Assembly (NCBI GenBank): GCA_964187785.1
Contig: OZ076409.1
Span: 68,884,001 to 68,948,000 of the forward strand
From: Amphiscolops sp. MND2022
Taxonomy: Eukaryota
Direction of reading: 5' to 3'
Length of the DNA: 64,000 nucleotides
The position numbers were made by a program, and so were the translations under genes. This document shows, piece after piece, positions 14,384 through 59,253 of this stretch. Below the pieces are notes generated by a model. That model was not told the origin of the DNA and made no database searches. It saw only the letters and a program-made list of their open reading frames with translations. How positions within the stretch are numbered: the stretch's first letter is position 1; every line of letters starts with the position of its first letter.

Positions 14384-17300
14384 ATGTCTTCTGCTGAAGG
14401 TTGGTTTGTTTCTGATTTGAACTTAATTTAACTTGATCAGGGCTAAATTTGTTCACAAAACGCTTCCTGTTTCCATCAATGAACATGTGCTAACACACTT
14501 TATTCAAGTTTTCAAGACACTTCCGGAAGTTTTCTAATGCGGTAAAATTGATTTCTTTCAAGGAAGCTCACCGCCAAATTTCATCTCTTTCTGTTTAGAG
14601 AATCAGAATGTAGACGAAGAACAAACTCCAACCAACACCAAAGAGAATATCCATGCACAGTCCGAACAAACATTGGACCAGTCTTCTGTCCTTGCTGCTA
14701 ATCTCGCTCACGATCCGATTCCGACTCCTTTCCCTCACGTCAGGTTTGTGACATTCCAAGACCAGAACATCACTGAATTCCCTCTCAGCACTGACAGTAA
14801 TGTGGATGTTACCGCTTACGCGACTGAGATGGTACAATGAATGGAGGCAAGCCAAGTTGCCAGAGCGCCATCGGTAGAGGAAACTGATGAAACCAGACCC
14901 GTTACATCTTCTTGCATGGAGGGCTTGTCTACCCCCACTCCTTGATCCTAGGAAAACTAGCACTCCGACGCAGACTGGTCGTAATCTGGGAGAGTCATCG
15001 AGTTTGTCCCAGCATGAGTCGCTCTTACAAATTGCTGTAACCACTTCCACTGAGTTCCCTGAACTGCCAGTTACTGCTACAACATCAGGAGGGGTTCCAG
15101 GTACCTCTCTCTTGCAAATAGAGGAAGACTCTTCATCAACAACCAGTGGTCCCCCCGTTACCAAAAGGGAAGGTTCGAGTAACCGAGGAGACTAGTGACG
15201 TCGATACTACTGGGGCGACATCTGGACTTGATGACTTTCCCCCCTTGTATGGAACGATTCCAGGTTGTTCAGAGCTCGAGTTCGAAAAAGGCACTGATAC
15301 TGAACTTGAGAATTACATCAACGACCCTCTTGGGACGTCAACAATGGGCACTCAACGACAGGAGGAACCACTAAGAGAGTTGTCTGGCCGCAGCAGGGCT
15401 ATTTTAAAATAGTATTTTGAGGCCGAAGACCGTTACACTTTCACTGTGGGTCACAGGACGGTAGCTTATACTGAGCCTCAGATCTACCACCTGTTGCGAG
15501 TCTTGACCGACGAGGCCATCAATATGACCTGTACGACCACGGAGCAAATGGTCATAGGGGCAGTGAGAGGAAAGCTTGCCACGGCTCCTTCGAGAATTGG
15601 GCAATTCAAGAGCCGAGCCCAGACTCCTAGACCCCATCAAGCAGGAAGTTCTAGTTCCGAAGGATTCCTCACCGATCCCGGACAGGATTCGGAGGCGAGT
15701 GGGGACTTTAGTGCACTGCTTGAAGTCGTGGTATATCAATCCAAGAGGATAGTGATAGTTCGGGAGAAATGGCTCTGGTAGCCGACAGTTTCAAAAGATC
15801 AACGATCGAGAACACCAGGCCCGCACAGCAATTGTTAGCACTACTCTAATCAGTTGGCAGAGGAGATGAGTCCACAGGACAAAGCAGTCTGGATAGTCTG
15901 GATGCGACATTGTCAGAACTACGAGAGCAACCTTCGACTCAAAACCCTCAAAGGAAAAGGTCCAGTAAGAAGGCCCGCAAACCCAAAACCACTCTGAGAC
16001 GAGGAGTACCCATGCGAGAAGAGTTCTTCTCCAAAATCGAATGAACTCGGTCCTTCATATCAGGCCCCGCAGATCCCCTTCATAATCCGCACATGGGCTG
16101 GTGCCACATGTGTAAAAAGAATTTTTCTGTGAAGACGAAAGGGTTGGTCGAAATTCTTAGGCACCATAGAACCGAAAAACACATCCGAAGGGACCAGCGT
16201 TGGCGCTACGAGCATCTCAGGAGCGTTGACCCCGTCACAGGAAAAATCCAACATAGGGTTAGAGTGAGGAATGGGAAGATCCTCAGTAAGGTTGAATTGG
16301 CACAGGAGCTTCCAAAGTTCATTCACACCGAACTCGTTGACGTAGAAGAAAAGTTCCCCTTCTATGAGGACTACCTCAAAGAAAGCACAACAGCCTTAGT
16401 AACTCCCCAGTCACGCTCTGAAACTCAAATTTGCCTCGTCGGGGACTTCATCCAAAGGCAGGGGGACTTAACCATCCTCCGGAATTTGTGGTCACGGGTC
16501 GGGTCCTTCACTGAATACCAGGTAGCCTTCCACGACTTTGATTGGAGCGAGGAGAGAATCACAGTAAGTATAATTCGTATGCCCTGTTTCCGGTTTTTAC
16601 TCACATGTTAACATATGAACTTGTATACTCACGCATATATGCACGTAAATAAACACATGGGAGCTAACATAGGTGAAATTGTTTTATGTTGTGAGTGACT
16701 CCATCCTGCATTTCAGGCTATATTCTAACAAATCTTCAACTGTGTCATGGAGGACATTGCTGAACAAGTGACTTCAGCACAGCATTTCTCCATCGAATTT
16801 GAGGACAGCGGGACAGATCGTCTGATGTTTTTGCGCTATTGGAGGGAAGCCAAACTCTGTAGGGTTTTCGTTTATCGTAGTGCACTTCCTGCTACTGACC
16901 TCACCGGCGAACTGGGATCCCTATCACGTTTGCTGTCGGTAGTGTCAACCGATCCCGACATAGTTGCTTGCTCAGGCTGCTCTGTGGACTACATTCGTAC
17001 CATTGACCAGCATCATTCCTACTCAAGAGGCATCCAGAGCTGCTTCCGATTTGAATCGCTTGATTTACAACTTCTGATGCACAAATTCACGTACAGTGTG
17101 TTTGGCCGAATTGACATGTTCTCCGTCCTCCAATGCCTCCTTGTTTCCCTAGGCGGGTCTCTCACGGAAGATTGGGTCCTGGAATCACCTGAACTCACTC
17201 GAGTTAGTGTATTTTGTTTCACTTGAATGGTAACACAGTATGGAGTGATAAGGACATGTAATGTGTGACACGTTTCGTAACATCATTGTATTTAGGCCAT

Positions 17301-18747
17301 AACCACCTGCAAATTGGAAGTGGATAAACTCCCAGATTTATGCCGGGATTTACTCAAGCGATGGAAGTCAGTCCTCCGATATCTGACTGTCCATTCCCGC
17401 CGACAGGAGAACCAAGGGGTGCACAACAAGGTCCAGCGCTTTGAGTGGTCCTTGATATCCGATGAGTTCTTCTCCGTCAGACTGGAATTCTTTCAGCGCC
17501 TCATCAACAACTGTGATTATGCTACGCTTCGGTATGCGTCGGTCACGTGTCCTGATATGGACTCTTTTGGTTTTGTGTTTCAGACGTCTCAAGTTTCACC
17601 GTCAATCTCTCTCATAGACGGGACGCTACCTTCTACCTCTGCGGGGAGGTTTGCAGATTCATCAGCCGGCTTTGCTTCCGGGTGTATCAGCCTGACACTG
17701 TCCCTCTCGAGAGTGCTTGGTTTCTCTTGCTGGATTTTCGGACTAGCGACGGGAAATTCATGAAAGATGACGAATTCTTGGTCAGACTCAAGATGACCAA
17801 CAAGGTGATTGCTGCTAGTAATCTGAAAGCCGCAGGATTACACTTCAACAAGAAGTCAAGTAAGGCTGTCATTGATAAGACGGCCGTCTCAGCCAAGTCC
17901 GACTTTATAACCAGTGCCAAGAAGTACGCCGAGCACCTACTCAGAGGTGTCCTCCAGCATACTGGTCTTAGCTCCGATATTGTCAAAGGGTTGGCAGCTT
18001 TTGACCCTTACATTATGATGAAACGGCCTACTGAGGTGGCTCTCCGCCACTTTGGCATCCTATATTCAACTTTCCAGTTGCGATCCTGGGTCACTGGGCC
18101 AAACGAGGCCGCGTGCAGGGACGAGTTTCTGGCATTGCTGGATTATATCCGAACTTACCATTCTTCCAACCCGAGCCTTACTAATGACTCAGCTGACCTC
18201 ATAGAGTTCCTTATGGAGCTTGATTTTCTCCAAACACATGAGCACCTCTGCCACATTTTCAAGTAAAGCTGTCTGTGTTTAACCTCTGGAAGTCCCCGAT
18301 ATCCAGTGTGGTGATGGGGAAGGTAGACACTCAAGGCCTTCAGTCTCGAATAGCCGATGTAGTTTTGCCTTGCCAAAGTTACTTATCTGAGGTTTCTGAC
18401 TCTCTGGCTTTCTGCTGTACTGATGTCAATCTTTAAAATCTCTCCCTGCTCTCCGCTTCATTCGGGCAGTCTGGACTCTGTTCCGACTATGATCCCTGGA
18501 CATATGTGGATAACTTCGGGCGTTCGTCCATTTACAAATCCTTTATGTCTTCTCATCGTTCCGTTCTTTCTGGGACAGGAACAAGTGCTAAGGATGTTAC
18601 TGCAGCTGACGTTCCTTCTGTGAGAGATGCTCCCGCTATTAGGCTGCCCAGCGACACCAAGCGAAGACGTATGGAAAGGAGCCAATCCCGGTCCAGGTGT
18701 CTTCTTCCGTAGTGATGGAGGCTACGACTAGCAACTCTAAAGACTAA
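14384..18747 (+). pseudogene. Antisense intron-containing accessory gene of element A: BED-type zinc finger plus hAT-transposase-like body (degenerate)
   Basis: Predicted GT-AG introns 14400-14598, 16564-16716, 17203-17295. Motifs WCHMC-x16-H-x5-H, FSIEFEDSGTDRLMFLRYW, RWKSVLRYL, LAAFDP. Several stops and frameshifts. Collinear with the gene at 45981-50259. Confidence 0.75.
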
Positions 18748-33157: not shown

Positions 33158-33538
33158 CGGTTCCCCCTTTCAATTTTTTTTTCGGCACTGTGCGACATTT
33201 TTTTCCCTATTTTTTGCCCTCAAAGGGTCCCACCTTCAAGTTTTTGATATTTTGCAGCAAACTAAAGTGCCAAAAAGCCCAAAGGGTCTCCCCTTTTATG
33301 TATTTCGACACTATGAGACTGTTCAAAATTCTCATTTTTCGTTTTTTTTTCGAAAATTAAAAAAATCGAAACTTTTTAAAAGATTTTCGACATTTTTTTG
33401 TATCCAACGTGTCCCCCCTTCAATTTATTTGATATTTTGCCGAAGGCTCCTCACTTTTACAGGTTTTAAAACTTTGCGCTTTTTGACCCTTTAGCGCCTT
33501 TAAGATATAGCGCCGACTTTAGACGTTCCCGTCTTGTT
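33158..33538 (+). mobile_element. HINE-like element, partial copy
   Basis: AAAGGGTCCCCC-type units and terminus GCGCCGACTTTAGACGTTCCCGTCTTGTT, the reverse complement of the 3579 terminus. Confidence 0.65.
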
Positions 33539-37562: not shown

Positions 37563-38239
37563 CAATCAAATTGCGACTGGATTTGGTAAGTTTGACTGGT
37601 AATCTACTTCCAACAAAAAAGTTGTATAAAAGATGATCAAGGTATGAAAAAAAGAAGATAAATCAAAATGGATTGAACGTAAAGTCTTCAACCAGAGAAT
37701 GATAACGAAAAACAGGGAAATTATTTCAGAACAACGCCTAGAAAGTAAAGCTTTCTGATTGGTCAATATTTTTGACCAGAAATGGAAAATGCAAATTCAA
37801 GGAAGAGAATGTCTAGGCTCTGTTTTTTAAGGCAGTAAAATATGAGAAAATTCCTGCCAGGCGGCGAATAAACATCGCCTTGAACAGACTTTTGAATGCC
37901 ACCGGTCAGTGATAATTAATAAATAAACACTTAGCCCATTTCATAACTAATTCAAGAATTCGAGACAAAGAGTTAAGGAATATCATCCTGATGAGCAAAC
38001 AATATCAAAGGGGTTAATAGAAGCAATCAATTTTGTAATAAATGACTCATCATATTTGATAAATCGGTGTGATTTAAAGTTGTATCTTGAATTTCCCAGG
38101 GGTTAAAATTCCCTAGTTGAGAAAACAATGCATCTTGTAGGATTCTAGCGAAAATTCTGTTACTTGAAAGATCTATTAAATAAAGGTATTATTTGCAAGA
38201 ATCGTACAAGGAATGCATTATGTGCTCTGATCAGGCAAT

Positions 38240-40374: not shown

Positions 40375-41059
40375 TTTTTTAGTCGGCGCTTCATGAAGTG
40401 AAACGCGACTATTATAGTGACTCTTTTTTTTCGATCCACACGAACTGACCAAAATAGTTCTTAAAAGTTCTACAAAAAATTATGGTGTCAAATTGCACCA
40501 TTTGGCCTAGCGAACTGGACCAAAATGATTTTACCTGTTTTTCCGCGTAACATACCATACCGGGCGAGACCAAAGAGTCCCCCCTTTCAATTTTTTTTCG
40601 GCACTGCGAGACATTTTTTTCCGGATTTTTTTTCGAAGTTTTTTTTCCCTCAAAGGGTCCCCCTGCATTTTTTGATGTTTTGCGACAGAATGGGTGTTAG
40701 AAAATCCCAAAGGGTTCCTCCTTTCAGTTTTTTTCGGCATTGTGAGATTTTTTCCCGAAAATAATAAAAAAATTTTCTTCAATTTTTTCATGTTTTGCGA
40801 CAGAGTGGATGTTGAAAAACCTCAAAGGGTCCCCCTTTCAGTTTTTCGGCATTGTGAGACGTTAGCGCGCCAGGGGTTCGCGCTAGCGAGCCCCGGCGCG
40901 CCACTCGGTCCATTTTTTTAATATGTAGTTTTTTAAAAAAAAATTACGAAAAAGTTTCAATTTTCGACTACTGTAAAAGAATACTTGACACTTGGAAGTC
41001 TTTTCGCTATTTTTGAGCTTTGGATATGGCGCCGACTTGGGCCGGTCCCGACTTGTTTT
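40375..41059 (+). mobile_element. HINE-like element
   Basis: TTTTTTAGTCGGCGC start, AAAGGGTCCCCC units, GGCGCCGACTTGGGCCGGTCCCGACTTGTTTT end. Confidence 0.7.
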
Positions 41060-43468: not shown

Positions 43469-44053
43469 TGAAATAAGATCTAAGAGTACATGATGAAGTA
43501 CGGATTTCGATCACAGGCGGCAGCTTGGGACAGGTGCCCTTTGAGTTTGGATACTTCTTCTAACTACAAACATCAAAAACGCGAATGGGACCCTTTTTGA
43601 AATTTCAAATTTTTCGAAACAGTCGAACAGTGCTGAAATTCAACCGGCAATTAACTTGGAATCTAAATAAGCGTGATAAAAAGAAAACTAGAGGACCCAA
43701 ACTGAATGGGGGGACCTTTTGGATGATTTTGGTATTCGTCGCTATATTGGCATTCGGCACGACATGGTCGCTTACACAAGTTTAAAAAACACGACAAAAA
43801 GCCACACTAATTACTCGTTTTATTACATAAAGTGACGACTAAATATATTCATTCATATGTTTATGATGCAGATAACTCTGTCTTCTTCTCTATATTCAAA
43901 AGCATTTGCTTTATTTAGAAGTGTTACACATAAATTTACATGCTTGAGATCCTCAAAGCGTGAATTAGGCAAATTTTCATCATGGATTTATCATAAGCAA
44001 TGAGTCCATATCTAATTAAAGAAACACTTATGAGAGAAAACTAAGTATTCGAG

Positions 44054-45154
44054 TGTCGGAACGACTGTCAGTACTAGTAGTTACTGGATTCAGTCTATTC
44101 CCTTCTCCATTAACGGAGGCAAACTGGTTGGTTAGCGTGAGGACTATGTTTGTAAGGTCTCCGATTTGCCTATTTATCTCGTTAAATCTTCGGTCAATGT
44201 CGTAATTACTACTATTTTGACGTCTAGTTAAAACGTCATCAGAGTCAAGGTCTACCATTTGTTCTCTAGACAAGAGTTCAGGGAAGCTGGTTTCACTTTC
44301 ATTATCACTAGTTCTATCCATGTTCTCAGTATCAATCTGTCTATTTCGACTACTTTGAGATCTGGTGATTACCATGAAAAGTCTGAAGTTTTAAGTTGAA
44401 TTGAAGTATTTTAATGTTATAACAACTATTGATGACTGGTAAGCAAGGTAGTAAGCAACCGGTTATATCAATGGTCACAATTCGTTAATGAGTTCGGTTT
44501 TACCCGACCGTGTCACTATCAAGGTGTGTTAGCACCTTTTCTCTTTCAGCCAATAACATTCGACTTGCTAATTACTATTTAATTGCACTTGACGACTGGT
44601 GGTTCCAGTCATGACGGGTGATGATCGGCGTTTAATTGTTCGTGTTTGATTTAGTATGACCGCAAGCACCAGTCATTTTAGCACTTAATTGTCTCAATTG
44701 CTCTTTAAACTGAGGCTTCACTACCGCGTGTTCTTATCATCATGGTGACTGATTCGATTATCGTTTGGAGGATAATTACTGCAGGACATTGTACAAATTG
44801 CTAATATGAATGAACGAAATGATTGAATATTCTGGTAATACTTTACATGTAATATAAAAAATGGATAAAGAACGGTTAAACGATGCACTATCACTGTGGA
44901 TGATGACTGATTGTTTCAGTCGTAAATATGGAAATGATTGAATATTTCAGTTTTAGCTTTTAAACGATGCACCATAACATAAACGAAATTTGGTATTGAT
45001 GACTGCTAGTTTCAGTCGTCGTATAGCCAACTGTGATATTTAGCTAATAAATTACTGCAATGTATTTACATGATGATCTATATTTTAGGGAGTTTGATGT
45101 AAGAACTAATGTTTTAGAGTTTATTTCATTTCTTCATGCTTGGCGGGCATGACA
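44054..45154 (-). repeat. Element B 3' LTR
   Basis: No differences from 58153-59253 seen by eye; preceded by PPT on the minus strand. Confidence 0.95.
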
Positions 45155-45168
45155 TTCCCCCCCTTTTT
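45155..45168 (-). promoter_or_regulatory. Polypurine tract of element B
   Basis: AAAAAGGGGGGGAA directly 5' of the 3' LTR TGTCATG. Confidence 0.9.
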
Positions 45169-45980
45169 GAGAGAGAGTGAGCTGTAGGGGTAGTAGGAAA
45201 GGTGAATGACTGAGGTGAGTGGTAGCAGGTGGTTAAGTTGAGAATTGAACAGCGGCTGAAGTGGCAATGCAAGGTAGATGGAAAACGCGTGGGTTGCAAA
45301 TGAAGCGGTTGAGAGCTATTCGGAAGCGTGAATGGCCAAGTCGAGGCAGGCAAATAATATGCAGTCGGAAGTTGGGGTTTATTTATAGTAACTGTCGGTC
45401 AGCCACGTCATCCGTGTGGTGCGCATATAGTGGAATGTTTGTTTAAGCAACTTTTCATCGATCATCGGCAGTTGATTGATTTGTTGCGTTACCATAGTGA
45501 AAGTCAGTTGAGTATTGTTGTTATATTTGGAGAGAATTTGAGCCTGTTCAAACTTGAAATCATTCACCTTCGTTTGGCAACCGTTGGTTTTGCTCATTCT
45601 TCCACAATAATATCAATATTGCTATCTATGGGTTTTTGCCAGGAAGTCTGGTATTTTGTCGGGTGTTGATTGTACTTTTATGAAGAGGGAATGGGGAAGG
45701 ATACTAGGCTTTTTTGGTGAGGAACCACGACTGCTTTTTTTCTGCTTCGTGTGAATAGCATTTGAAATTTGACGGAGGTAGATCCAAAATATGGTTCCTT
45801 GAATATCCAGTGGTACGCGGGTAAAACTGTTTGATAGGGAGGTTGGGTATCCATTGTGTATTGAGATAGGTGATCAGTCTATAACAACAAGAAATGGAAG
45901 AATGAGCTTTTGCAGTCGTGTCCTGTGTGCCTGTTATTATTCCCTTGGAACGTTGGAGTTTAATTATATTGTGAGCCAGC

Positions 45981-47164
45981 ATGTTGGAAGATGAGGCAAA
46001 TCAGTCGTTCGGGCCCGAATTGGAGGAGATGGTTACTGAAGTTGAAGATCAGATGGCCATGCAGGGGGCTGAGCTAGGTGGAGGCGGGCTGAATTTGCCC
46101 GATCTTATGTTGGAGACAAGTCAATGTTGCCAGTTTGCAACTCGCGTATCATCATTAAACATTGCTGGTTTGGGCGATTTATTGGACGTCGTCTTGTCCC
46201 AGGAATTCGGTAAGTGTGGCTCTCGTATTTTGCTTTTAGTGTGAGTAAGCGGTAATATCATCAGTTTGTCGTCTGCCCAAGATAGTGCCTGTAGTGTTAG
46301 GGAGTGTTTGGTCATAATCTTGTAACTAAGGGTATTGCGTTCTTGTAGCCGATGTCAACATGTCAGACGTGACCGACTATTTACGTCGGTATCGTGCTTC
46401 GGTTGCTGCTGGGACTGTTGGGAGTCCAGGAATAGATTCGGCGTCCATCCTTCATCGTCTAGATGCCTTTCTGTCATCTCATATGGGTAGGTTTATTCAC
46501 ATTTCTCTGGTATCAAAGGCTATTAGCTGTTACCCAGTTATTTGTTGTTAGCATTATAATCTAGGTTATTCGTAGGGGGGGGGCTTTTGTCCAAAGTACC
46601 AATTGCACGCCGTGTGTGGTTTGCTGTTCTATAATAAATTGATGATAGGGGTCTTCAGGCATTGAGTCCAAGGTAAGTTCTGTGAGTTGTGGATAACTTT
46701 GCAGATGCAAACATCAGAGCTGAGGTCGTCGAGGGGCAATTCGCTGAATTGTTCCGTCGTGTGGAGAAAGAGATACAGCATTGGGTGAAAGCTGCAGTAG
46801 AGTCCCGCCTCGGCCAACTGGGGACAGTGGGTGCCCTTGCTGTGGAGGAGTTCTTAAGTAAGCTGAAAGAGGCAATACAAGATCTGCGTCAAGCTCCCGT
46901 TGCTTCCCGGAGTGATGATGTGCCATCTCTCCCACGTTCTGTGGCCGGAAGCCTCTTTGGTGGAGAAGATCGTCGTGCGCCATCAGAGTCGGGTGTTCCC
47001 TCTGAGTTTGGTGAGAGAAGTGTTGTGCCTTCTGGGGGGACATCGTGTGCTGTTGCCTCCGCATCAAAGCCTGGTAAGAACTCTCAAAAGATCATGTGGG
47101 GGGTTTTAGTGGTAGGGTAGGACTAATTATATACAACATACTACTAATAGTTGGTGACAAACGC

Positions 47165-47195
<31 letters not shown>

Positions 47196-50100
47196 GAAGT
47201 TTTACGTGTGGTGTTGTGTGTTTTAGCAGGTCGGAAGCGTGCTGTTAAGACTCTCAAGCCTTCGTTTTTTGTGTCTGGGGTAGTGGGGACCTTCGTTGGT
47301 TTCCCCCGGAACAAACGGGTGGTCGATGGTTATGCAAGATGTCGTCTGTGCCGCGTCGATCTCAGTATTGCCGGACGTGGTCTGCACAACTTGTGGGACC
47401 ATTGGAAGGGACGTGAGCACACCCGGCTTGAGCAGCGTTTTCGGATCATGTCCAATATGCCTTTGTTGGACAAGTCCTGCAGGCCTGTGTCCTTGGAGGA
47501 GGATAGGAGGATTCGCGCCGCGAGAGTATCAGAGCCGCCTGTCATCCTAGAATCTGATGTGAAACTGACAGTGGAGGAGAGAATGGCGATAGAGCGCGAG
47601 GAGGAGGCTGCAGGAGCTAAGCCCGAGTTATCGGAGTCTAGTGCTTCGTACCTCTGGCTCTGTTGTTTCATAAGCAATTTCGTCGAGCTTCAAACGTTTC
47701 CGAGTGTGGTCCGAGCCATGGAGTCATGGGTCAGCAGTATGCGGGGAGAGCTGGTGTTCGCTGAGAGGGCGCTATCTTACCCGAAATGTCAGGTAATACC
47801 TTTTTTATCATTTTGTCTTTTTTTTTTTTTTTGTTTGAAGTTGCTATTGGTATGCCTGTGTCTCGTGGTGTTTGTACGTAGTTGGATAATGGGTTTGTCT
47901 TATTTTGAACAAAATATGCTTTACTATGTGGTGAGTGACATGGTTTTCGTTTTGTTGCAGAGTCTCGTGTTATACGGTCTCTATCCGTTCGTTGTCGAGA
48001 AAGTCAGTGATCTTCTCTCTTCTGGGGTGCGGTTTGGCTTACATGTCCGCACTGATGGGCCATTGAAGCGTGTGGACTGTCACATCTTCGCCTCTGTGAC
48101 TATCAAGGTTGTGGTTCTGGTTGCGATTCCTGGTGGCGCTGAGTGGGAACAAACCCTGCTGAGGATTCTTGTCTCCGTTCTGGCTTGTGTGGAGTCGCAT
48201 GCTGGTTTATGTGCGATTAGCGTAGGCGAGAATCTGCGTCTTGGGCGGGCATTGGCGAGCATTGCACATCCGATCATGCCTGTAGTGACTCGTCGTCTGG
48301 ATGTGGTCTGGTTGAGGGACTTGCTTCGCCGTACTTTCCTGCAGCACTTGAGTGGACTTGAACCCTTCTGCGTTTTGGAATATTTTCGGTTCCGGCTTTC
48401 TGCAGTCATCGGAGAGTCATCCTTCGACAATATGCCCAGACTTCGAGAGGTAATTCAAGCAGTATTTAGTCATTCTGGTTGGGGGTGGGTTGGTCTGGTG
48501 TGTATGTGTTTTCCTCGTTTGTGATGACTGGTACGCTTGGGTGTGGAGGCTTTTAGTCATGCACTGTATATAATTTTATGCTGTTTTGTTTTAGTTCGTT
48601 CGTGGTGGTGCTGCATGTTTCCGGGAGTTAGCAGTTCTGTGCACGGAAATTGTGGATCGGTGGGACGATCTCGGGGCATACTTTGGTGGTCACCGTTCGC
48701 AGACAGTTTCTGAGACCCGCAATATTGCAAGTATGGAGACGCAGGTCTTCAGTGATGCCATGTCCAGGCCGCGGTTCGCAGTGTTGAAGTTTCTCGCTGA
48801 GACAGGTCAGTATAAATGCTGTGCTTATTTCTGTGTCCGAGTACATCCACTCTATGGTTATTTTTCCTTTCTGCTATGTGGTTGATGAGTGGATTGTGAG
48901 GGAGTTAGGACGTTCGGGCTGGTAGGGTGTGTTGTTGAGTGTTTCAACATGTTGGTCAGGGATCATCTGTATGTTTCAGTTGTTGCCAAGTGTCCCCGTT
49001 TGTGTTCTGCTGGGCGGGATCGGAACCTATGGTTTGAGCGTGAGCTGGCTGCTTTCCTTCGGGAGTTATTGTCTCTAGTGGTCGAGTCTGCAACAATACC
49101 ACCCGATTTCGAGGTACTTGCCGTACTGAAGATGCGACTGGGAGAGAGTGAGCCAGTGAACAAAGCCCGATTTGAAGTGTTGTTTGGTCAGTACTTCCGG
49201 TTCGACGTTGTCAGTCAAAAGTCGTTCTTCTACAAAGAAGTACAAAATTTCCTGAGGGCTATCTGTGAAATGTGCATCTGCGACTATGATCAGGGGTGGG
49301 TGAAGCATCTGAGCTTATTGCCGTTGGATCCTCATGCGATTCAGCTGATGTCCATGGATCGATTGACGGACATACTCGTGGGTACGCTCTCGGTGTTAAG
49401 CTTCGGTGATCTTTGCAGTGGAGACCAGGGGGCCATCGTCATTCAACAATATCGGGAAGTGGTCACCTATTTTCAGCGCCGTTGGGAGTCCAGTGTCTCG
49501 GGGGTGCCGGTCATTGACGACGCCGTGTCCTTGTGGTTGTCATACCCTTCGTGGGACCGGTGCCAGGAATTCCAGGGCATAATGGAGATTCTGTTTGTGG
49601 GGATGCTTCATGACCCATATGTCGCCAATTTCCAGGATGTGGGAAACACTGCTCTTAGTGATGGCATCATGTTGTCCAGTCTTCACATAGTTCGGAGCTG
49701 GATGTCAAGTGGGTTTAGTGGGCATTCACGCCGCTCTATGATTGGATTTGTCAGGCACTGCAATAATACTGACATGCAGGTTTCTCGTCTGTCCGATGTA
49801 GCAAGGGCTATTCCCTGGGACCAGCTGGTCAAGAGGGGTATTGATGAACTACTGGATCGCTGCCTGGGTGTTCTGGAATCGACTGGTGGTCTCCCAGCTC
49901 GTCCTGTTGTCGACAATTATAGGTCTATAGTGTGTGATCAGTTGCGCACAATGGATTCGAGCCCAATTGCTCTTCATCGGAGTCCTGGGCGAGCAAGGCT
50001 TTCTGTGTCGCAAGCGCCTAAGTTGCAGGCTGAAGTCGTGTTACCAACAGAGGGCCCGAGTACTTCAGCTTCAAAACGTAAATCTGCCTGTAAGACGTCT

Positions 50101-50259
50101 GGAAGCAATCGTGGTCAGAGAACGGGAGGGAAACCAGGCAAGAAAGGAAAACGTACATTAGCTACTGTTGAAACTGAACCTGAGTCGGCTGGCGGGCGTT
50201 CTTTCACGTTAGAGGAGAGCAGTGATGAGGAAGATGGTAGTCGTTCCAAAGAGTATTAG
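45981..50259 (+). CDS. Antisense 7-exon accessory gene of element B, ~1092 aa: BED-type zinc finger plus inactive hAT-transposase-like protein
   Basis: Predicted exons 45981-46209, 46349-46486, 46705-47073, 47230-47792, 47961-48449, 48595-48805, 48980-50259. All introns GT-AG with T-rich acceptors and compatible phases; total 3279 nt, no internal stop. Motifs CRLC-x16-H-x5-H, RWDDLGAYF, LPLDP; basic NLS-like tail (KPGKKGKR). Confidence 0.8.
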
Positions 50260-52142
50260 TTATCTTCCAGGTTTGTCGCAGTAATCAGATTTTGCTACTT
50301 GGCTTGTTAATTTGTTTGCAGAACTTTTTACATGTTGATTACATATTGATATTGTGTTTTGATGTTATGCTGTGTTTTATTATGGCCTGAGTTGGTCTTA
50401 CATGATGTAGTAATTTAGTTAGATGGTTTCTGCCGTCCAAAACTTTTCTCTGTTTTTCTGTAGTACTGGGCAGTTAGGGCGTTATTAGCGGTTTGTTGCA
50501 TGTAGGGAAAAAAAATGAATTTTTGCATGTGGTAGTGTTCAGTCTGACTGCATGTACTCGTCATTTTTTCTTCGTTGGTGTAATGTAGTCTAGGAACGAT
50601 TTGTTTTTCTGTAGTGCGTGAAATCTAGGGTTGTTTTAAACGGTTTCTTCTTCGCGTGTTTTTGGAGTATCTATGTGTCCATGATGCTAAACTACCTCTA
50701 TCGTTCTTGGGTGGTTGTATCGGGTTACCCATACCTTGACTATAGTTTCATGCGGTGTTTCGCTCTATTTGTTGCGTCGTCTTAAGTGAATTTTTCCAGC
50801 AAGTTCATGATGGTTATGGTGGTCACCGCGGCAACCACCGACATAAAAATTGTTCACGCGCCAAGCTGTGCTGTGCATGGTACTCGAAAGTCAAGTCCTC
50901 CTCTTCGTTGTTCGTGAATGCTCGAGAATGGTAACGAGACAGGATGACTGTGGCTTTCGGTCCTTAGCACCGCGCCGCGAGGTACGTGACTGAGCAGCTC
51001 GCTCATTTCCAAGGCTGAATTCCCAAGGGGTGGATCCTTGGCTTGATACATGACTTATTAGGTATGCATGTAAGTGTTACGTGTTATAAGTTCTAGGGAC
51101 TACTTTACATGTATGTTGGTGTTTCGATTTATTACATGCAGCGGTCTATGTTTGCGACGTCATCATCGTTGATGTGTGTCCTGGGACGTCATCACACGTG
51201 ATGTGTGTCGTCAAGATCGCGAGTTCTTACGTTATGTTAACTGCAGTGGTACCAAGTTGTTAGGCTGGGAAGGATGGACATGTTTAGGTTTCCTCGTTAA
51301 GTAGCTTTTTGGGGCCGCGTACTCCTTACTCTTTTCCCTAAAGAGGCAAAGCCTTCGCATCCTAGGTTACGTGTAAGGGGCCGGGCGATCATTGTTTTCG
51401 GGAGTTGGTAAGTTCTTGTTCGTACCGGCGTTCTGTTAGTTTCTGGTGATTAGTTTTCAGTTTAAATGTTCAGTTCATTGGGAAAGGTGAATTCCCGTCG
51501 GAACCACCTATACAAAACTAACACTGAATCCAGTTGCTAAAGAGCAACCTTCATCTGTATGTATGACCAACCACACAAGCACGCTTTTGACGACGCACCC
51601 ACACAGCCAGAACTATGAGTCTAAAGCGAGATAGGTGGGGTATTGGTTATGTTGTCCTAACGTTTGCCAGGCAGCAGATCATCATTGTTAGTTTGTTGCG
51701 TTTGTAGGGAACGTTGTTTTCGTTCACGTTTCGTTAGTTATGCATCAAGATTTTGCTAAGCAAATTGCTTTAGTTCCGGTTGTGGATGTAGTAAATTTGG
51801 TGCGAATTGAATAAATTATCGTTCACACTTTTGCGCGTTACATGTACTTCCGGACCGCGAGTGTTGGAATGATAGGCTTGTGCAGTCGTTACTTTACTAT
51901 TTGGTTGTTTCGCTAACAATTGGTGCTGATAGATTAGATAGTTTACACAGCGACGGCGGAAGTGAACGGTCGTTTATTGAAGTGTTTGCTAGGTTGTTCA
52001 GAGCTTTCACTATTGTTTGCTGGATGCTTGGTGTACTAGGGTGTAATTGTAAAACAATTACCTTTACGGTCAGATAGAAAGGCTGTTGGTGACTGTTGTT
52101 AGCAGTCATTGGTTTAATAAGTGTGATTATGGGTGGGTGTTT

Positions 52143-55100
52143 TTATAGGTTTCTGTTTTTCAGAAGCAGCTGTTGAAGCGAAGGCGTTCCATGTAATTCG
52201 TGCATTAGGAAATCGGGGTACGTGGTAGGTTTTGGGTTGTGTCTGAGCCCGTATCGAGACATGGTGTTTCGCGATGTCGCTGGAGGGCAGTCGTTTGTTT
52301 GGCGTTCGGAATTGTTCATGCTAACATTATCCGGTTGTGGTTCTTGTGTTTCAGCTCGGCTTTCAGGTATGGAAATGTTTTGATCAGGTTCTAGGCTATG
52401 GCGTTCATAGTATATCATTCCATGGTCAGCATGTAGTTCTTCGAAGTCCGATTGTTCAGGTATTGCTTGTTGTGGTTGTTCGTGGACGTGATCGGGTAGG
52501 TGGTTGTCGAACAACTCCTGCTCGTTGAGGGCGTCAGGATCCTCATAGTATTGTGATGTATCGTCTTGAATGTCTTCAATTGGTGCGTTTGGTGTAAATG
52601 GGCGGAGCCTCATTCTGTGGACGCATTGGGTGCGAAGAGTTCCAATCTTACGTATAATGTAATTTGAATTGGACAAGACTTTTACCACTTTGTACGGGCC
52701 TTCCCACTTGAATTCCTTGAAAGGAATTTTGTCAGATTGTTGAGACAGTCTTTTGTTTAGCAGAAAGGTGAAATCATTTACTTTCAGAGGTGAAGCTTGC
52801 GCTTTTCGGTCGTAGTAATTCTTGTATTTGTGGAAGGCTTCGATTATGTTGTCATGTGTTTGTTGGAATTTTTTGTTCATGTTATCTAGTATTCCAGTGA
52901 CGTCAGTGGTGTTGCGTTGTTCAGTTAATGGATGGCCAAATTTGACGTCAAGAGCATTGAACGGAATGCGTCCGTGGAAAACTTCAGTGGGTGTGCATCG
53001 GATAGCCTGGTGGTAGGTTGTGTTATGGGCCATCACGGCCATGTTTACGTATTTGTGCCATTGTGGTGAATCGGCTGAGACGTTGATTTTGAGAATTTGT
53101 TTTAGTTTTTGGTGTGAACGTTCAACCATCCCAATCGTTTGTGCGTGCTTTACAGAGGCGTGTTCGATTTTTATACCGGCAGACTCCATCAGAGCGGTGA
53201 GTAGTTGAGATGTGAATGTCGTTCCTTTGTCAGTTAAGATTGTTTTGGGTACATACGAGTGCTGCGTGAAGATTTGCATGAGTGCTTCGACGACCGACTT
53301 CGTGTCCGGTTTACGGATTGGTATTGCGGAGAGGTACCTAGAAAAGTAGTCGCATGCAGTGAGGATGTGTGTGAATCCGTTGGAAGGTGGGAGTTCACCG
53401 ACTAAATCGATTTCTAGTATGTCTTCTGGTCCGTTGCAGGGGTCGTATATTTGTTGGAGTGGTGGTGTGATTTCAGCTTTCCGGATTGGTTTTGAGCGGA
53501 TGCAGTCCTGGCAGTTCGAGACGTATTGCAGTACCAGTTCAGAGAGGTTTGGTGAGTAGTACCTTTTACGCAGTTCGTGGAGCATTTTGTTACAGCCAGG
53601 GTGACCTTGCAGAGGGTCATCATGCAGGGATTGAATGATTTTCCGAATGGTTTCAGAGGGGGTGACAATTTGTTTACACTTAATTTTACCTGTACCATCG
53701 AAAAAGTTCCTGTACAAAACGTTGTTCACTACTTCAAGTCTTTTCTTGTTTTTAACTAGTTTTTGGAAAAACTGACTTTCAAAGTTCACATGATTAGGAA
53801 GGGTTTCCTTTTGGTTCAAAATTCTAATCATGCGTTGGATGTCAAGGTTTACGGCTTGGTCCTGGATGATTTGAAACTCCCCATTGGGGCATACCTGGTT
53901 TACCACGTTGTCATGAAGCTTTCGCCTGAATCGGGTGAACGTCATCTCGTCATGCTGCCCTGTGATGATGGGTGTGATCTGATGACGGATGGTTTCAATC
54001 CTCTCGCGAAACTGTCCACTCGATTCGTCACTGCATATGGGGACCTGGTCCAGTATGGCGTTGATGGCTTCATTTTGTTTGGTGGTGGTGGTTTGTTGGT
54101 CATCAGGTATGTATTCTTCTTCTTCTTCGTCCTGCTTCGGTGTTCGTGACGCCAGATCGATCTCGACGTGGAAGACTGGTATCTCGTCGTTGAGTTTGAG
54201 GTGGATTCTCTCCTCCGGTCGTATGTCTAGACGAGACAGGTAGTCTGCAGCAGGATTCTCGGTTCCGGGAACATGGGCAAGTACGAATTCAAATTGAAGC
54301 GTCTGATCGCAGTAATTCCATAGCTTCGGTGGAATTCGTTTGGACTGGAAGAAACGGGTTAGTGCTTTATTGTCCGTCATTACGATTGTTGGTTTCTTGA
54401 CACCCCAGAGTATGTGTGCAAATTCGTCGAATGCAAAATGCATTGCCAGGAATTCTTTTGCATACATAGTAAGTGACATTTGGCCCTCCGTGAATCGTTG
54501 GGATCCAAATGATACTGGTGCGTACGTCTTCATTGGTCCGTCGTTAGTTTCGGTGTAGTCTTCTATCAGGAGGACATATCCTGCCGCATGCTCGCTGGCG
54601 TCACACATTATAACAAGCTGTTTATCGGGTAACGGCAGACGCAGCGAAAGTTTCGCGGCTTTGGCAAGGTTTTCATTAATCTCGAAGATAATGTCCTTTT
54701 GCTGCTGGGTCAGCTGGAATTTGACGTCTTTTTGAAGTAGTTTGTACAGTGGGGTGAGTTTTTCTGCTAGGCGTGGTATGTACTGCCTGTAGAACTGGAC
54801 GAACCCGATGTACCTTTGGAGGGATTTGACTGATGTGGGCAATTTGATCTTCTTGAGGAAGTTGTCTATCTTGTCTTCGAGTGGGGCAACACCCTTTGAT
54901 GTGATGCTTCTTCCGAGGAAGTCGATCTGTGGGTGGCCAAACGCACATTTTGACATCGACAATTTCAGTCCTGCTTTTTGGATTTGTTGGAACACAGCTT
55001 CAATGTTTGACAGTAGCTCATCTACAGTGTGGGCAGCAATCCCAATGTCGTCGACATATTGGGCACATTTATCCGCTTTCACCAGTGCGTCGACGTATTC

Positions 55101-56948
55101 TCGCACCGTGCTGTTGAATGCTGATAGGGATCGATTGAGTCCTTGTGCCAGTCGTAGATAAGCAAAGGTTCGACTTCCAAAATTAAATGCCAAGAGTTGT
55201 ATGGATTGTTCGTCCGCCATCTGCAAACAGTGGTACGCCTGCGAACAGTCCAGCTTGCAGAAATACTTCTTCCCTGCCATGTGCTGGGCGGCGTCGGCGA
55301 TGGTGGTGACTGGATGATTATGTTGGTTGTAATCATTTTTCAAAAGGTGGTTGATTCTGCGCAGGTCTACAAGAATGCGAAGTTTCCCATTGGGTTTGCG
55401 TTGAGCAAATATTGGTGAGGAATACTTGCTGTATGGCAACGTCGTGATTATCCCGTACTCTTGCATCAGCGCTAGTTCGACGAGCAGGTCGTCTTTGAGA
55501 TTTGTGGGTGTGGGCAAACTCTGTGCGTAAACTGGCTCATCATGCTTCGGGGTAAGTTTAATTTTGAAATCGGTATTGATGCCTATGTCAAGGCGGTGTC
55601 TGGCGAACACATTGTTATACTTCACAAGGAGGTTCTCAATCTGTTGTCGTTCGTGCTCATCCAGGATTGAGTTTTCCCATTTGAAGCTGGCAAGGAACTC
55701 CTGGCGTTGTTTATCGTCTGCTGTTGGGTCCAGTTTTTCTTCTTCACGGAGTTTAGTGATTTCGTCGTATATCCGTCTTTCAATGCGGTTCAACTTGGAC
55801 GGGTCGTCACAGGTCTCCGGTGTTGGGTACCATCGACGGTTGGTTTCGGTGCCAGGCTCTTGGAACAGCTGGTTTAGTACATTATCAGCTTCGTCTGGGT
55901 ATTTGGTGATCAGTGTCAATTGTTCGTTTGACATCGGTTGTAGGTTCTTTGCCTGGTTGGGGGTCATTATTCTGAATGTGGCCACCGTTGTGTTCGGGTT
56001 AAGGGTGATTGTGTGGCAGGTAAGGTTGGTGATCTGGACATGGCTTTTCATCTCAGTGATTTGTGTTAAGGCGGGGGACACTAGTAGTTGGGTCTTTCTT
56101 TCAAAGGCTGGAAAGGTTTCTACAGTGCCCTGGATTGTCCCGAGGTCCTTTTCTGCTAGGACGGGGACAATGATTTGATGGTCCGGTTGTATGACTGTTT
56201 TCTGCGTCGTTCGTAATTCGATCATCTGAATTTTGTATCGTCCTCGTTCTGGTTTCAGCTGCAGGGTAATATCCGGGAACTTGACTACGTTGTTGGCAAG
56301 GTCAAGTGTCACCGAATACTTTTTGAAAAATGACATTCCAATCAGGATGTTACCCATGGTTGGGAGAATCATGAAGGTTTCCTCGAATACTTTACCTCCG
56401 ATGAAGAAGCGAAGTAGTACCTGTTTCCGGACCGGGACGATGCTCCCGTTTGCAATTTGGACTTTGAAGTCCGGTGCTGGGTACTCTTCGAGGAGTGCAG
56501 CTGGGTGTGCAGACAGGATTCGTCTGAGTTCGTCTTCTGACATGGCACTTCTTATTGCTCCCGTGTCGAGGAGTCCATGGTTTTCGTATGCTCTGAATTG
56601 CAATGGGACGTATAACATCTTGTCCTTTTTGTTTAACTGAAGTGTTGCTGTTAACACCTGGATCGCCACGTCCTTCTTTCGGTTTGTTGTTTTCTTTGTA
56701 CAGTCAGTCGTCGTAGTCAAGTTAGAGTGCTGTCCGTCTTCTGTCGGTTGTAATTTCACATCCGTTGGTTCGGATGGGGAGTTCGCTTCGTTGTTGGTTG
56801 TCTCGTGGGTAATTGAAGTCATGGGTTTCTGATCCTGCCGAAGATCAGTTGTCCATTTTTTGTAGTTTTTTGTGTAGTAGTAGTTGTTTGTGTTGCGCAC
56901 TTTGTTATTGTAGTGGTCGGTCGAATGACGTGGCTTTAGAAGTTTTTT
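52143..56948 (-). CDS. pol: pol polyprotein of element B (protease, RT, RNase H, integrase), expressed by -1 frameshift
   Basis: 1585-aa open frame (52143-56900) that stays open back to the slippery site: LLDTGA, QYVDD, CDAS, LHDDPLQGHPG...CQDC, IDLVG/TDKG/VERS, WEGPY. Confidence 0.96.
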   Translation of the reverse strand, partial: KKLLKPRHSTDHYNNKVRNTNNYYYTKNYKKWTTDLRQDQKPMTSITHETTNNEANSPSEPTDVKLQPTEDGQHSNLTTTTDCTKKTTNRKKDVAIQVLTATLQLNKKDKMLYVPLQFRAYENHGLLDTGAIRSAMSEDELRRILSAHPAALLEEYPAPDFKVQIANGSIVPVRKQVLLRFFIGGKVFEETFMILPTMGNILIGMSFFKKYSVTLDLANNVVKFPDITLQLKPERGRYKIQMIELRTTQKTVIQPDHQIIVPVLAEKDLGTIQGTVETFPAFERKTQLLVSPALTQITEMKSHVQITNLTCHTITLNPNTTVATFRIMTPNQAKNLQPMSNEQLTLITKYPDEADNVLNQLFQEPGTETNRRWYPTPETCDDPSKLNRIERRIYDEITKLREEEKLDPTADDKQRQEFLASFKWENSILDEHERQQIENLLVKYNNVFARHRLDIGINTDFKIKLTPKHDEPVYAQSLPTPTNLKDDLLVELALMQEYGIITTLPYSKYSSPIFAQRKPNGKLRILVDLRRINHLLKNDYNQHNHPVTTIADAAQHMAGKKYFCKLDCSQAYHCLQMADEQSIQLLAFNFGSRTFAYLRLAQGLNRSLSAFNSTVREYVDALVKADKCAQYVDDIGIAAHTVDELLSNIEAVFQQIQKAGLKLSMSKCAFGHPQIDFLGRSITSKGVAPLEDKIDNFLKKIKLPTSVKSLQRYIGFVQFYRQYIPRLAEKLTPLYKLLQKDVKFQLTQQQKDIIFEINENLAKAAKLSLRLPLPDKQLVIMCDASEHAAGYVLLIEDYTETNDGPMKTYAPVSFGSQRFTEGQMSLTMYAKEFLAMHFAFDEFAHILWGVKKPTIVMTDNKALTRFFQSKRIPPKLWNYCDQTLQFEFVLAHVPGTENPAADYLSRLDIRPEERIHLKLNDEIPVFHVEIDLASRTPKQDEEEEEYIPDDQQTTTTKQNEAINAILDQVPICSDESSGQFRERIETIRHQITPIITGQHDEMTFTRFRRKLHDNVVNQVCPNGEFQIIQDQAVNLDIQRMIRILNQKETLPNHVNFESQFFQKLVKNKKRLEVVNNVLYRNFFDGTGKIKCKQIVTPSETIRKIIQSLHDDPLQGHPGCNKMLHELRKRYYSPNLSELVLQYVSNCQDCIRSKPIRKAEITPPLQQIYDPCNGPEDILEIDLVGELPPSNGFTHILTACDYFSRYLSAIPIRKPDTKSVVEALMQIFTQHSYVPKTILTDKGTTFTSQLLTALMESAGIKIEHASVKHAQTIGMVERSHQKLKQILKINVSADSPQWHKYVNMAVMAHNTTYHQAIRCTPTEVFHGRIPFNALDVKFGHPLTEQRNTTDVTGILDNMNKKFQQTHDNIIEAFHKYKNYYDRKAQASPLKVNDFTFLLNKRLSQQSDKIPFKEFKWEGPYKVVKVLSNSNYIIRKIGTLRTQCVHRMRLRPFTPNAPIEDIQDDTSQYYEDPDALNEQELFDNHLPDHVHEQPQQAIPEQSDFEELHADHGMIYYERHSLEPDQNISIPESRAETQEPQPDNVSMNNSERQTNDCPPATSRNTMSRYGLRHNPKPTTYPDFLMHELHGTPSLQQLLLKNRNL

Positions 56949-58474
56949 GGCTGGCTAGATGATGGTTCAATGAAGTCCTGTTGGTAGTATTCATCACTGA
57001 TTTGTTGTTGTTGGTCCCCTGGTGCAACGTCATTCATTTCATTTGCTGGGTAAGGGCTGTTGTGTGCTCTTCTAAAGTCACGTCGGAAATCCCTGTTTTC
57101 AGTTGTGGTTTGCCTGTTGTAGGGCACACTTCCGTAGGCAGAGGTTTGAGGTATTCTATGCCTACAGTCTTTTGCAGAATGGCCTGTATATCCGCAGATT
57201 TGGCAGACCAGTTTGGCGTTGTATTTCGGTTGTGTTTCTGCGTGGTTGTTGTTCTGTTGTTCGGGCTTTTTCTGTGCCTGGGAGTTGTTGTTACCTGCTG
57301 CCTCGTCTCGCTGTCGTTTTCGGCATTCTGCCCATTTGTGTCCGTATATCGCACAGTATCTGCAGTTGCCGTCGAATTTCCTTTTGATTGTTGGTCGATC
57401 AGTTTCATTTCGTTTCTGGGTGACTGGCTTGTTCGGGACTTCTTGCGTCTGAATAGCCTGATTGAACGGTTGGAGCAGTTGTTGGTTTGGTAGTAACTGG
57501 GCATATTGACATCTTCTCTGGACGAATGTTTTGATGTCTTCAATGCTGGCATTGTGTTTTCCTGCAATTGCCAGTTCGTTTTGGAGCTGGATGGGTAATT
57601 TGGCAAATAGGAAAGTCTGGACGATTTCCTGTGCTTTTTCGCCATAGGCTTGTTTGGCAATCTTTTTGTAATTGGCGAGGAAGGTACTGAATGACTCAGT
57701 AGCTGGATCGTATCGTAGTTGGTCGAATTTGAACTTCGAGACTTCTGAGAGTTCTTCCTTTGCGTATTCTTTTTTGAATGCCGTCAGTATATCTCTCAGT
57801 GTCGTTTCTGTTGTGATTGTTAGGGTTTGCCAAAACTCAATTGCATCATCCCTGAGAAGACTCTGGAAGTAGTTGAGTTTTTGTTCTTCGGTTAGTTTGT
57901 GGGCATGTGGTCGTAAGTGGTTGAGCAATAAATGCTCGAATTCATTGTATTTGTCTCGGTTTCCCTTGAATAGGGGTACTTGGGTCTGCAGAATTTTTGG
58001 GTGCGTCAAGGTTTCCCCCATTGTACTTCGGAGATGGTGGATTTCCGTCATCACATCTGCTATTTGCGGCATGCTTTCGTCACTCCTTGGTGTCCCGTTG
58101 GGTGGTGTTGTTCGGGATCCTGATGGTCGTGGATTCGAGACTCCTGTCACCATGTCGGAACGACTGTCAGTACTAGTAGTTACTGGATTCAGTCTATTCC
58201 CTTCTCCATTAACGGAGGCAAACTGGTTGGTTAGCGTGAGGACTATGTTTGTAAGGTCTCCGATTTGCCTATTTATCTCGTTAAATCTTCGGTCAATGTC
58301 GTAATTACTACTATTTTGACGTCTAGTTAAAACGTCATCAGAGTCAAGGTCTACCATTTGTTCTCTAGACAAGAGTTCAGGGAAGCTGGTTTCACTTTCA
58401 TTATCACTAGTTCTATCCATGTTCTCAGTATCAATCTGTCTATTTCGACTACTTTGAGATCTGGTGATTACCAT
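56936..58474 (-). CDS. gag: gag of element B, 512 aa
   Basis: Capsid-like region (VPLFKGNRDKYNEFE...), two CCHC knuckles CRYCAIYGHKWAEC and CQICGYTGHSAKDC; starts inside the 5' LTR. Confidence 0.95.
   Translation of the reverse strand: MVITRSQSSRNRQIDTENMDRTSDNESETSFPELLSREQMVDLDSDDVLTRRQNSSNYDIDRRFNEINRQIGDLTNIVLTLTNQFASVNGEGNRLNPVTTSTDSRSDMVTGVSNPRPSGSRTTPPNGTPRSDESMPQIADVMTEIHHLRSTMGETLTHPKILQTQVPLFKGNRDKYNEFEHLLLNHLRPHAHKLTEEQKLNYFQSLLRDDAIEFWQTLTITTETTLRDILTAFKKEYAKEELSEVSKFKFDQLRYDPATESFSTFLANYKKIAKQAYGEKAQEIVQTFLFAKLPIQLQNELAIAGKHNASIEDIKTFVQRRCQYAQLLPNQQLLQPFNQAIQTQEVPNKPVTQKRNETDRPTIKRKFDGNCRYCAIYGHKWAECRKRQRDEAAGNNNSQAQKKPEQQNNNHAETQPKYNAKLVCQICGYTGHSAKDCRHRIPQTSAYGSVPYNRQTTTENRDFRRDFRRAHNSPYPANEMNDVAPGDQQQQISDEYYQQDFIEPSSSQPKNF
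56942..56948 (-). promoter_or_regulatory. -1 ribosomal frameshift slippery heptamer A_AAA_AAC
   Basis: Lies one codon before the gag stop (CCA AAA AAC TTC TAA); pol is in the -1 frame; same heptamer ends gag in element A (24156-24162). Confidence 0.85.
58141..58152 (-). promoter_or_regulatory. Primer-binding site of element B
   Basis: TGGTGACAGGAG directly after LTR end ...TCCGACA; identical 12-mer to element A. Confidence 0.9.
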
Positions 58475-59253
58475 GAAAAGTCTGAAGTTTTAAGTTGAAT
58501 TGAAGTATTTTAATGTTATAACAACTATTGATGACTGGTAAGCAAGGTAGTAAGCAACCGGTTATATCAATGGTCACAATTCGTTAATGAGTTCGGTTTT
58601 ACCCGACCGTGTCACTATCAAGGTGTGTTAGCACCTTTTCTCTTTCAGCCAATAACATTCGACTTGCTAATTACTATTTAATTGCACTTGACGACTGGTG
58701 GTTCCAGTCATGACGGGTGATGATCGGCGTTTAATTGTTCGTGTTTGATTTAGTATGACCGCAAGCACCAGTCATTTTAGCACTTAATTGTCTCAATTGC
58801 TCTTTAAACTGAGGCTTCACTACCGCGTGTTCTTATCATCATGGTGACTGATTCGATTATCGTTTGGAGGATAATTACTGCAGGACATTGTACAAATTGC
58901 TAATATGAATGAACGAAATGATTGAATATTCTGGTAATACTTTACATGTAATATAAAAAATGGATAAAGAACGGTTAAACGATGCACTATCACTGTGGAT
59001 GATGACTGATTGTTTCAGTCGTAAATATGGAAATGATTGAATATTTCAGTTTTAGCTTTTAAACGATGCACCATAACATAAACGAAATTTGGTATTGATG
59101 ACTGCTAGTTTCAGTCGTCGTATAGCCAACTGTGATATTTAGCTAATAAATTACTGCAATGTATTTACATGATGATCTATATTTTAGGGAGTTTGATGTA
59201 AGAACTAATGTTTTAGAGTTTATTTCATTTCTTCATGCTTGGCGGGCATGACA
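58153..59253 (-). repeat. Element B 5' LTR
   Basis: 1101-bp direct repeat of 44054-45154, followed by PBS. Confidence 0.95.

Follow-up and report, generated by a model that had tools for sequence, protein, structure and literature searches.

Can a class I transposon own a multi-exon gene on the strand opposite to gag and pol, and where would such a gene have come from? This question is raised by element B, a Ty3/gypsy long terminal repeat (LTR) retrotransposon in a 64,000-nucleotide stretch of the genome of Amphiscolops sp. MND2022 (contig OZ076409.1, positions 68,884,001 to 68,948,000), which will be referred to as the window. An earlier note, made from the letters alone, had described a spliced antisense gene between pol and the 3′ LTR of this element and had taken it for a class II transposase domesticated by an animal gypsy lineage. 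Comparison of genomic copies supports an antisense accessory gene that contains introns, occurs throughout a family of a gypsy lineage and evolves under purifying selection. Judging from predicted fold and sequence, its product is best read as an accessory factor that binds DNA in the nucleus and derives from a transposase without having kept the catalytic activity.

The antisense gene and the element that carries it

Between pol and the 3′ LTR of element B, on the strand opposite to gag and pol, seven plus-strand exons join through six GT-AG introns into a 3279-nt open reading frame (ORF), which runs from ATG to TAG without an internal stop codon and encodes 1092 amino acids (aa). The introns measure 139, 218, 156, 168, 145 and 174 nt in order, with a GC content of 0.32-0.44 compared to 0.49-0.55 in the exons. 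Exon 1 (45981..46209) starts with the ATG and encodes an acidic N-terminus (aa 1-76); it is followed by exon 2 (46349..46486) and by exon 3 (46705..47073), which ends in an S/G/P-rich linker. Exon 4 (47230..47792), the most conserved one, carries a BED-like CCHH finger at 47340-47420 (CxxC-x16-H-x5-H, aa 283-309 of the spliced product), and the segment after the finger may correspond to the hAT dimerisation domain. For exon 5 (47961..48449) an RNase H-like alpha/beta core is predicted, with strands at about 48030-48290, together with the first helices of a helical insertion. Exon 6 (48595..48805) precedes exon 7 (48980..50259), which comprises an all-helical region, a basic low-complexity tail and the stop codon; KRK and KKGKR clusters in this tail are a candidate nuclear localisation signal. 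Recomputation reproduced exactly the exon coordinates, introns, 3279-nt frame and finger that had been noted earlier, and a gene model of this kind is far beyond chance.

A candidate polyadenylation signal, AATAAA (51810..51815, plus strand), is found at a similar distance in three subfamilies, 1475-1596 nt beyond the stop codon and ahead of pol. Also in three subfamilies, 822-827 nt separate the 3′ LTR from the ATG. The constant spacing between ATG and LTR and the position of AATAAA before pol suggest a separate transcript that would not overlap with pol.

Element B itself occupies 44054-59253 on the minus strand and is flanked by a 5-bp target-site duplication (TSD; TCGAG, 44049..44053 and 59254-59258). 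Its two LTRs of 1101 nt (3′ LTR, 44054..45154; 5′ LTR, 58153..59253; both minus strand) begin with TG, end with CA and are 100% identical. A polypurine tract (45155..45168, minus strand), the sequence of which is the same beside the LTR of other copies, and a primer-binding site (58135..58152, minus strand), which may resemble tRNA-Leu, complete the set of terminal signals. The gag frame with CCHC knuckles (56936..58489, minus strand) starts within the LTR, and the open pol frame of 1603 aa (52143..56954, minus strand) encodes protease, reverse transcriptase, RNase H and integrase. This domain order, with gag first, is that of Ty3/gypsy elements, as are the direct TG...CA LTRs, the primer-binding site, the polypurine tract and the short TSD. 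With identical LTRs, a TSD and open gag and pol, the element is as intact as had been claimed. Between pol and the 3′ LTR (45155-52143) the minus strand has no frame that reaches 150 aa; element B has no sense env and is not errantivirus-like.

Copies, selection and exchange of the gene

Copies of the gene were sought in the whole 1.07-Gb genome. Exon 7 gave 1037 candidates, 99 of which were scored: 18 were about 100% identical, 43 showed 75-79% and 38 showed 68-70% identity. From these three groups five, five and one copies, respectively, were fetched. In all 11 the gene is antisense to pol, and 10 possess a direct LTR pair, the remaining copy being rearranged; a clean 5-bp TSD was detected in seven of the first ten copies, every one different. 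When the 99 scored exon-7 matches were compared with the integrase matches listed, 87 proved to be followed by an integrase in opposite orientation, usually at a distance of 2.1-2.5 kb, and in no case was the orientation the same; the 12 unpaired matches include one copy with a frameshifted pol. Conversely, 31 of 115 integrase matches are without a scored antisense gene among the matches listed. The retrotransposon group carrying the antisense gene is large and recently active. In three subfamilies the longest exact inverted match around the gene measured 9-11 nt, equal to that of shuffled sequences, and terminal inverted repeats (TIRs) are thus not evident; no separate search for an 8-bp TSD around the gene was made. 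All 12 copies examined that are intact or nearly so contain introns. One locus, G000:C8:59341838, was considered as a processed intron-less copy and rejected, as the splice donor is kept and the locus carries a deletion with a stop codon.

Several rearranged loci were observed. At G000:C13:45783329-45791787 four tandem copies of exon 7, spaced at 1.6 to 4 kb, precede a single integrase. The copies at G000:C13:38170400-38187831 and C11:7647970-7665499 have been rearranged: the 5′ LTR is inverted in one of them, and the other contains a 2.3-kb duplication.

Comparison of the copies clearly demonstrated constraint on the coding parts. Of the 120 splice dinucleotides in ten further copies, 119 are intact, and nine of these copies have an open frame. 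Between subfamily b and element B the exons are 73-79% identical and have kept their lengths, whereas the introns are 42-71% identical and have changed in length; one b copy has a 1-nt deletion in an exon. Subfamily c, at 70% identity, retains all 12 splice dinucleotides and a frame of 1100 aa. Across the 3279 nt of exons, one insertion or deletion separates element B from one b copy and five separate it from c, all in multiples of three. The 1000 nt of introns, in contrast, contain 18 (b) and 20 (c), of which 15 and 17, respectively, are not multiples of three. The ratio of nonsynonymous to synonymous divergence (dN/dS) between B and b is 0.089 for the whole gene, with 0.037 for the finger exon, 0.05-0.08 for exons 5-7 and 0.20 for the N-terminus, compared to 1.3 when the same alignment is read on the other strand. 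The splice model also agrees with database relatives, three of which run from exon 4 directly into exon 5 at the predicted join; of 65 relatives reaching the end of exon 4, 60 stop soon past it. Two of the checks that the earlier note had proposed therefore favour a resident gene: the copies lie inside LTR pairs without TIRs above shuffles, and dN/dS indicates purifying selection.

The gene is older and more widespread than the earlier note knew. Element A (about 10500-31150), which also lies in the window and is a decayed gypsy element of a different family, contains a decayed homologous antisense gene from the finger exon to the last exon (15988..18744, plus strand). An intact copy of family A yields a model with four exons and 1291 aa that is 21% identical to the B protein over the core; this similarity has an E value of 6e-12, compared to a best value of 0.46 in 300 shuffles. 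Three family-A introns occupy the same alignment columns (one is off by one) and have the same phases as introns 4-6 of B, and the pol proteins of A and B are 42-57% identical. Family A is the larger one, with 150 scored of 8212 candidates. Fifty-five of the 150 pair with a listed integrase, all in antisense orientation and 2947-3015 nt apart; the other 95 have no partner among the 114 integrase matches listed.

Divergence differs strongly along the elements. Between B and b, synonymous divergence (dS) is 1.33 in the antisense gene and 0.28 in pol, and between B and c it is saturated in the gene and 0.003 in the integrase. Since dS of the gene is far above that of pol or integrase, the elements recombine, exchanging a block of gene plus LTR against a common integrase. 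That the LTR travels within this block is deduced from its adjacent position and does not prove a function. A mosaic element was observed at G000:C2:21675900-21691799 (L039/L040), in which the integrase region is about 100% identical to B, the antisense gene 54-72% and the LTR about 75%, with breakpoints near window-equivalent positions 50500-51500 and 54500. We regard the structure, inheritance, conservation and cassette exchange of the gene as nearly certain.

Relatives were also found in protein databases. A profile of the finger exon matched 491 clusters at 50% identity, 205 of them with an E value of 1e-10 or better, and profiles of exons 7 and 5 matched 176 and 166 proteins, respectively. 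All 20 relatives that were looked up are unnamed ORFs from ENA or Logan. For two relatives the best match among the scored matches in the present genome is 37% and 44% or lower; without a close match here, they indicate that the family probably exists in at least one other genome. No full-length annotated homologue was found among proteins of 745-2125 aa, and scans of metagenome and viral contigs gave 168 and 78 pattern matches, respectively, none of which was confirmed.

Further observations concern family A. Element A is arranged in tandem, with a second gag start at 10498-11541 beyond the left LTR, and contains a 2.7-kb tandem duplication (25679-28417 / 28414-31154, 99.3%). At G000:C12:14841811-14875369 three family-A elements about 14.5 kb apart suggest a tandem array. 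In one family-A copy (L041:1-912, G000:C2:37179500 region, minus strand) an extra sense frame of at least 304 aa, without a Pfam match, lies between the antisense gene and the 3′ LTR, and a possible fragment of this frame is found at or near 14595-15191 of the window.

Origin of the protein and its possible role

The reading of the product as hAT-derived rested on motifs that the earlier note had seen in hAT order. Support for this order comes from the fold and the layout of domains only. The exon-5 model shows a predicted RNase H topology, and a Foldseek search of the PDB with this model returned Hermes at ranks 1-3 (E 2.5-3.1e-3, probability 0.98-0.99), a Pandoravirus hAT protein being first in BFVD (E 1.9e-3, probability 1.00). 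Foldseek and VIA matches are mostly RNase H-like folds, and structural-alignment identity to hAT is 10-13%. The finger, with its CCHH motif, scores weakly as zf-BED (E 0.013-0.12, under the curated cut-off); in the ESM Atlas exons 4-5 have weak zf-BED neighbours alone (0.81-0.83), which we treat as a lead, and exon 7 has no neighbours.

Other results weigh against a hAT origin. The top hAT matches in both structure libraries miss the Foldseek E threshold of 0.001, and VIA-align ties many RNase H-like folds without singling out Hermes. A search of the PDB by sequence with five family profiles gave no match, and neither hhalign nor profile comparison with two Ac-type hAT ORFs of the same genome gave anything above shuffles; there is no significant sequence match beyond the finger. 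Pfam scans revealed no hAT domain in the antisense gene, and exon 7, the model of which is all-helical and of low confidence, had neither a fold match nor a match to PF05699 (hAT dimerisation). Of the domestication that had been claimed, a selected, family-wide accessory gene with an RNase H-like fold stands; the hAT origin is likely but unproven. Ordinary hAT transposases also occur in this genome, with 150 scored of 2215 PF05699 candidates, several of them in open frames of 600-700 aa.

The catalytic residues of a transposase have probably been lost. No conserved aspartate is present in predicted strands 1 and 4, strand 4 has a serine (97%), and the third residue of the DDE triad could not be placed; analogy to the SDIW and DG/DN motifs in the two hAT ORFs, and not superposition, was used to set these positions. 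Two facts argue in the opposite direction: most members of family A are acidic in strand 1, with glutamate at 85% and 87% at two positions where element B has H and R, and exon 7 contains invariant aspartates. The antisense gene is not an active hAT element.

We propose that an ancestral Ty3/gypsy element took up a whole DDE transposase gene, most likely of hAT type, in reversed orientation between pol and the 3′ LTR, and that the transposon ends and catalytic residues would then have been lost while the gene was kept as an accessory gene of the element. Antisense introns are invisible to the splicing of genomic RNA and are copied through reverse transcription, which would explain their survival. 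A separate spliced mRNA would start from a promoter in or beside the 3′ LTR, and its product, a nuclear multimeric BED-finger protein, would bind DNA of its own element and keep the element expressed by transactivation or anti-silencing. A BED-like finger as the most constrained part, a dead transposase body and a basic tail suggest such a nuclear DNA-binding multimer. As a lead to finger targets, [A/C]GACTG-type 7-mers occur four to five times in the LTRs of B and c and are not among the top 7-mers in b; this count has no control. We consider the chances of the proposed regulatory role, in which binding to its own DNA keeps the element expressed, to be evenly balanced. The complete scenario can be put forward only tentatively: a class I element would have domesticated an entire class II transposase as a spliced antisense gene, kept, in more than one genome, through a deep gypsy radiation, passed between elements as a cassette and serving as a DNA-binding counter-silencing or targeting factor, thereby helping the clade to reach thousands of copies.

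With the same origin, the protein might instead act in the replication cycle, as a dead scaffold that grips DNA ends and tethers or guides the integration complex or aids nuclear import. The basic tail would fit this role, as would selection on the whole transposase-like body (exons 5-7) and not on the finger alone; import roles have been proposed for plant antisense ORFs (PMC7264820). However, an integrase that stays constant (97-100%) beside an accessory gene diverging down to 68-73% is unexpected for a tight partner, and eight TSDs examined share no common sequence, making this alternative rather unlikely. On the separate question of origin, it is unlikely that the hAT likeness is superficial and that an RNase H-like protein of other origin, from another DDE superfamily or a cellular fold, became fused to a zinc finger. 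The negative sequence tests and the tie in VIA-align speak for such an origin, but hAT proteins come first in both Foldseek libraries, and the order of finger, helical segment, RNase H strands and long helical region is that of Hermes, as laid out in the available text of PMC10368747.

Host-domesticated transposases typically have introns and have lost catalysis. The gene might accordingly have been captured from a host gene already domesticated from hAT, ZBED-like and intron-bearing, and its product could imitate a host factor for silencing or transcription through protein contacts, either as a decoy or in a dominant-negative manner. The finger profile also matches P0149, an unnamed Logan protein of 1059 aa with five related fingers and, by eye, hAT-like body motifs, which is possibly a domesticated transposase of another organism. 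This match is significant for the finger (E 5e-5) but not for the body, where 5 of 1000 shuffles were as good, and P0149 has no Pfam hAT or PDB match. Moreover, no single-copy non-LTR homologue was found among the scored matches, and intron 4 is missing in three relatives and introns 1-3 in family A, which indicates that introns were gained or lost within the lineage. We consider this combination of origin and role doubtful, although both direct capture from a transposon and capture via a host-domesticated gene would fit.

If the protein still acted on element DNA as a nuclease or recombinase, though in an altered way, the element would be a hybrid of class I and class II behaviour. The acidic strand-1 residues of family A and the exon-7 aspartates could be explained in this way; H and R at the strand-1 positions of element B, the serine of strand 4, the lack of TIRs, and the integrase-type 5-bp duplications that insertions show inside LTR ends make it highly improbable. 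Finally, although transposase genes nested in LTRs have been described, as for Coe1 (PMC2426827, available text), a simple nested DNA transposon or a chance chain of ORFs carried as passive cargo is refuted by purifying selection, conserved splice sites, missing TIRs and a fixed position and orientation in two distant families, and we give it practically no weight.

Other features of the window and known antisense genes

Elsewhere in the window, a single-exon rhodopsin-family G-protein-coupled receptor gene is located at 36444-37565 on the minus strand (7tm_1, E 1.4e-9), a gene that marks the host as an animal. Dispersed repeats with units of about 120 nt and GGGGGACCCTTT cores occur in both orientations at 3579-6071, 27791-30665, 33176-33296 and 40570-41058 and probably represent a non-autonomous element. 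At 62403-63402 a pair of 58-nt inverted repeats, 884 nt apart, resembles a miniature inverted-repeat transposable element.

If the proposed origin is true, domestication of transposases extends from hosts to other transposons and provides a route to accessory genes, and an LTR element can pass through reverse transcription for long periods without losing a gene with several introns. It would give a traceable origin to a kind of accessory gene that has so far been without known origin or function (PMC7264820), and may point to an animal counterpart of plant anti-silencing factors encoded by transposable elements (TEs). Both origin and function can be tested directly, since the architecture is recognisable, selection can be measured, the introns are conserved, some copies are young and intact, and natural variants number in the hundreds. 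The full-text literature yielded no LTR element of an animal in which an antisense gene is spliced and derived from a transposase; the available text of PMC9911081 describes acoel genomes as LTR-rich and mentions no such gene; prior annotation is possible in Repbase, Dfam, subscription journals and supplements, all outside the scope of this search.

The closest known systems are plant and fungal elements. The earlier note had mentioned antisense extra ORFs from plant gypsy elements of the Retand/Grande type, which PMC7264820 confirms: such ORFs, conserved and located between pol and the 3′ LTR (aORF-3R), are described for Retand (TRP28), maize Grande (gene23), rice RIRE2, PvRetro13 and Botrytis Boty (PMC7264820; available text of PMC11963269). 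Their products are nuclear or predicted to bind DNA and they have promoters of their own (PMC7264820; PMC11963269, as far as available). According to PMC7264820, these ORFs resemble no other TEs and have no known origin. Element B shares with them the position of the ORF, its conservation in most copies and a proposed nuclear, DNA-binding regulatory role. In contrast to them, the elements described here have an animal host, 3 to 6 conserved spliceosomal introns and a product of 1090-1290 aa with a finger plus RNase H-like architecture; the word "intron" is absent from the main text of PMC11963269. No TRP28 (PF04195) match was obtained in Pfam scans of the exons and of 82 and 103 family members, nor was a match to the plant mobile domain (PMD) found in the Pfam scans, and element B is not a member of the Retand lineage.

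Hermes-type hAT transposases and ZBED proteins resemble the product in their N-terminal CCHH finger, RNase H-like core and long helical region in the same order, and BED fingers of hAT bind short repeats of their own element (available text of PMC10368747). Unlike hAT elements, the gene has no TIRs and no conserved DDE aspartates, and it would have been domesticated by a retrotransposon and not by a host chromosome. TE-borne accessory proteins linked to silencing, which are reviewed in PMC13547354, include PMD, common to gypsy elements and Mutator-like elements and not itself a transposase (PMC5418596), and the anti-silencing protein VANC of VANDAL, a DNA-transposon protein, as far as the available parts of both sources go; Pfam scans showed no homology to either. 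Coe1 of sugar beet likewise holds a multi-exon class II transposase gene, an eight-exon CACTA gene, within putative LTRs, but in the available text of PMC2426827 it is a single nested composite with decayed retrotransposon genes and its own CACTA inverted-repeat ends, whereas here the retroelement is intact and multicopy, and the gene is without ends and under selection. HBZ of human T-cell leukemia virus type 1 is also an antisense gene, with a regulatory function and under the control of the 3′ LTR (cited by PMC7264820 and, as far as available, by PMC11963269); its protein is unrelated, and element B lacks env. The element is of a known kind, an LTR element with an antisense accessory gene, and new in that this gene has several exons, is ancient, moves between elements as a cassette and probably goes back to a hAT-like transposase.

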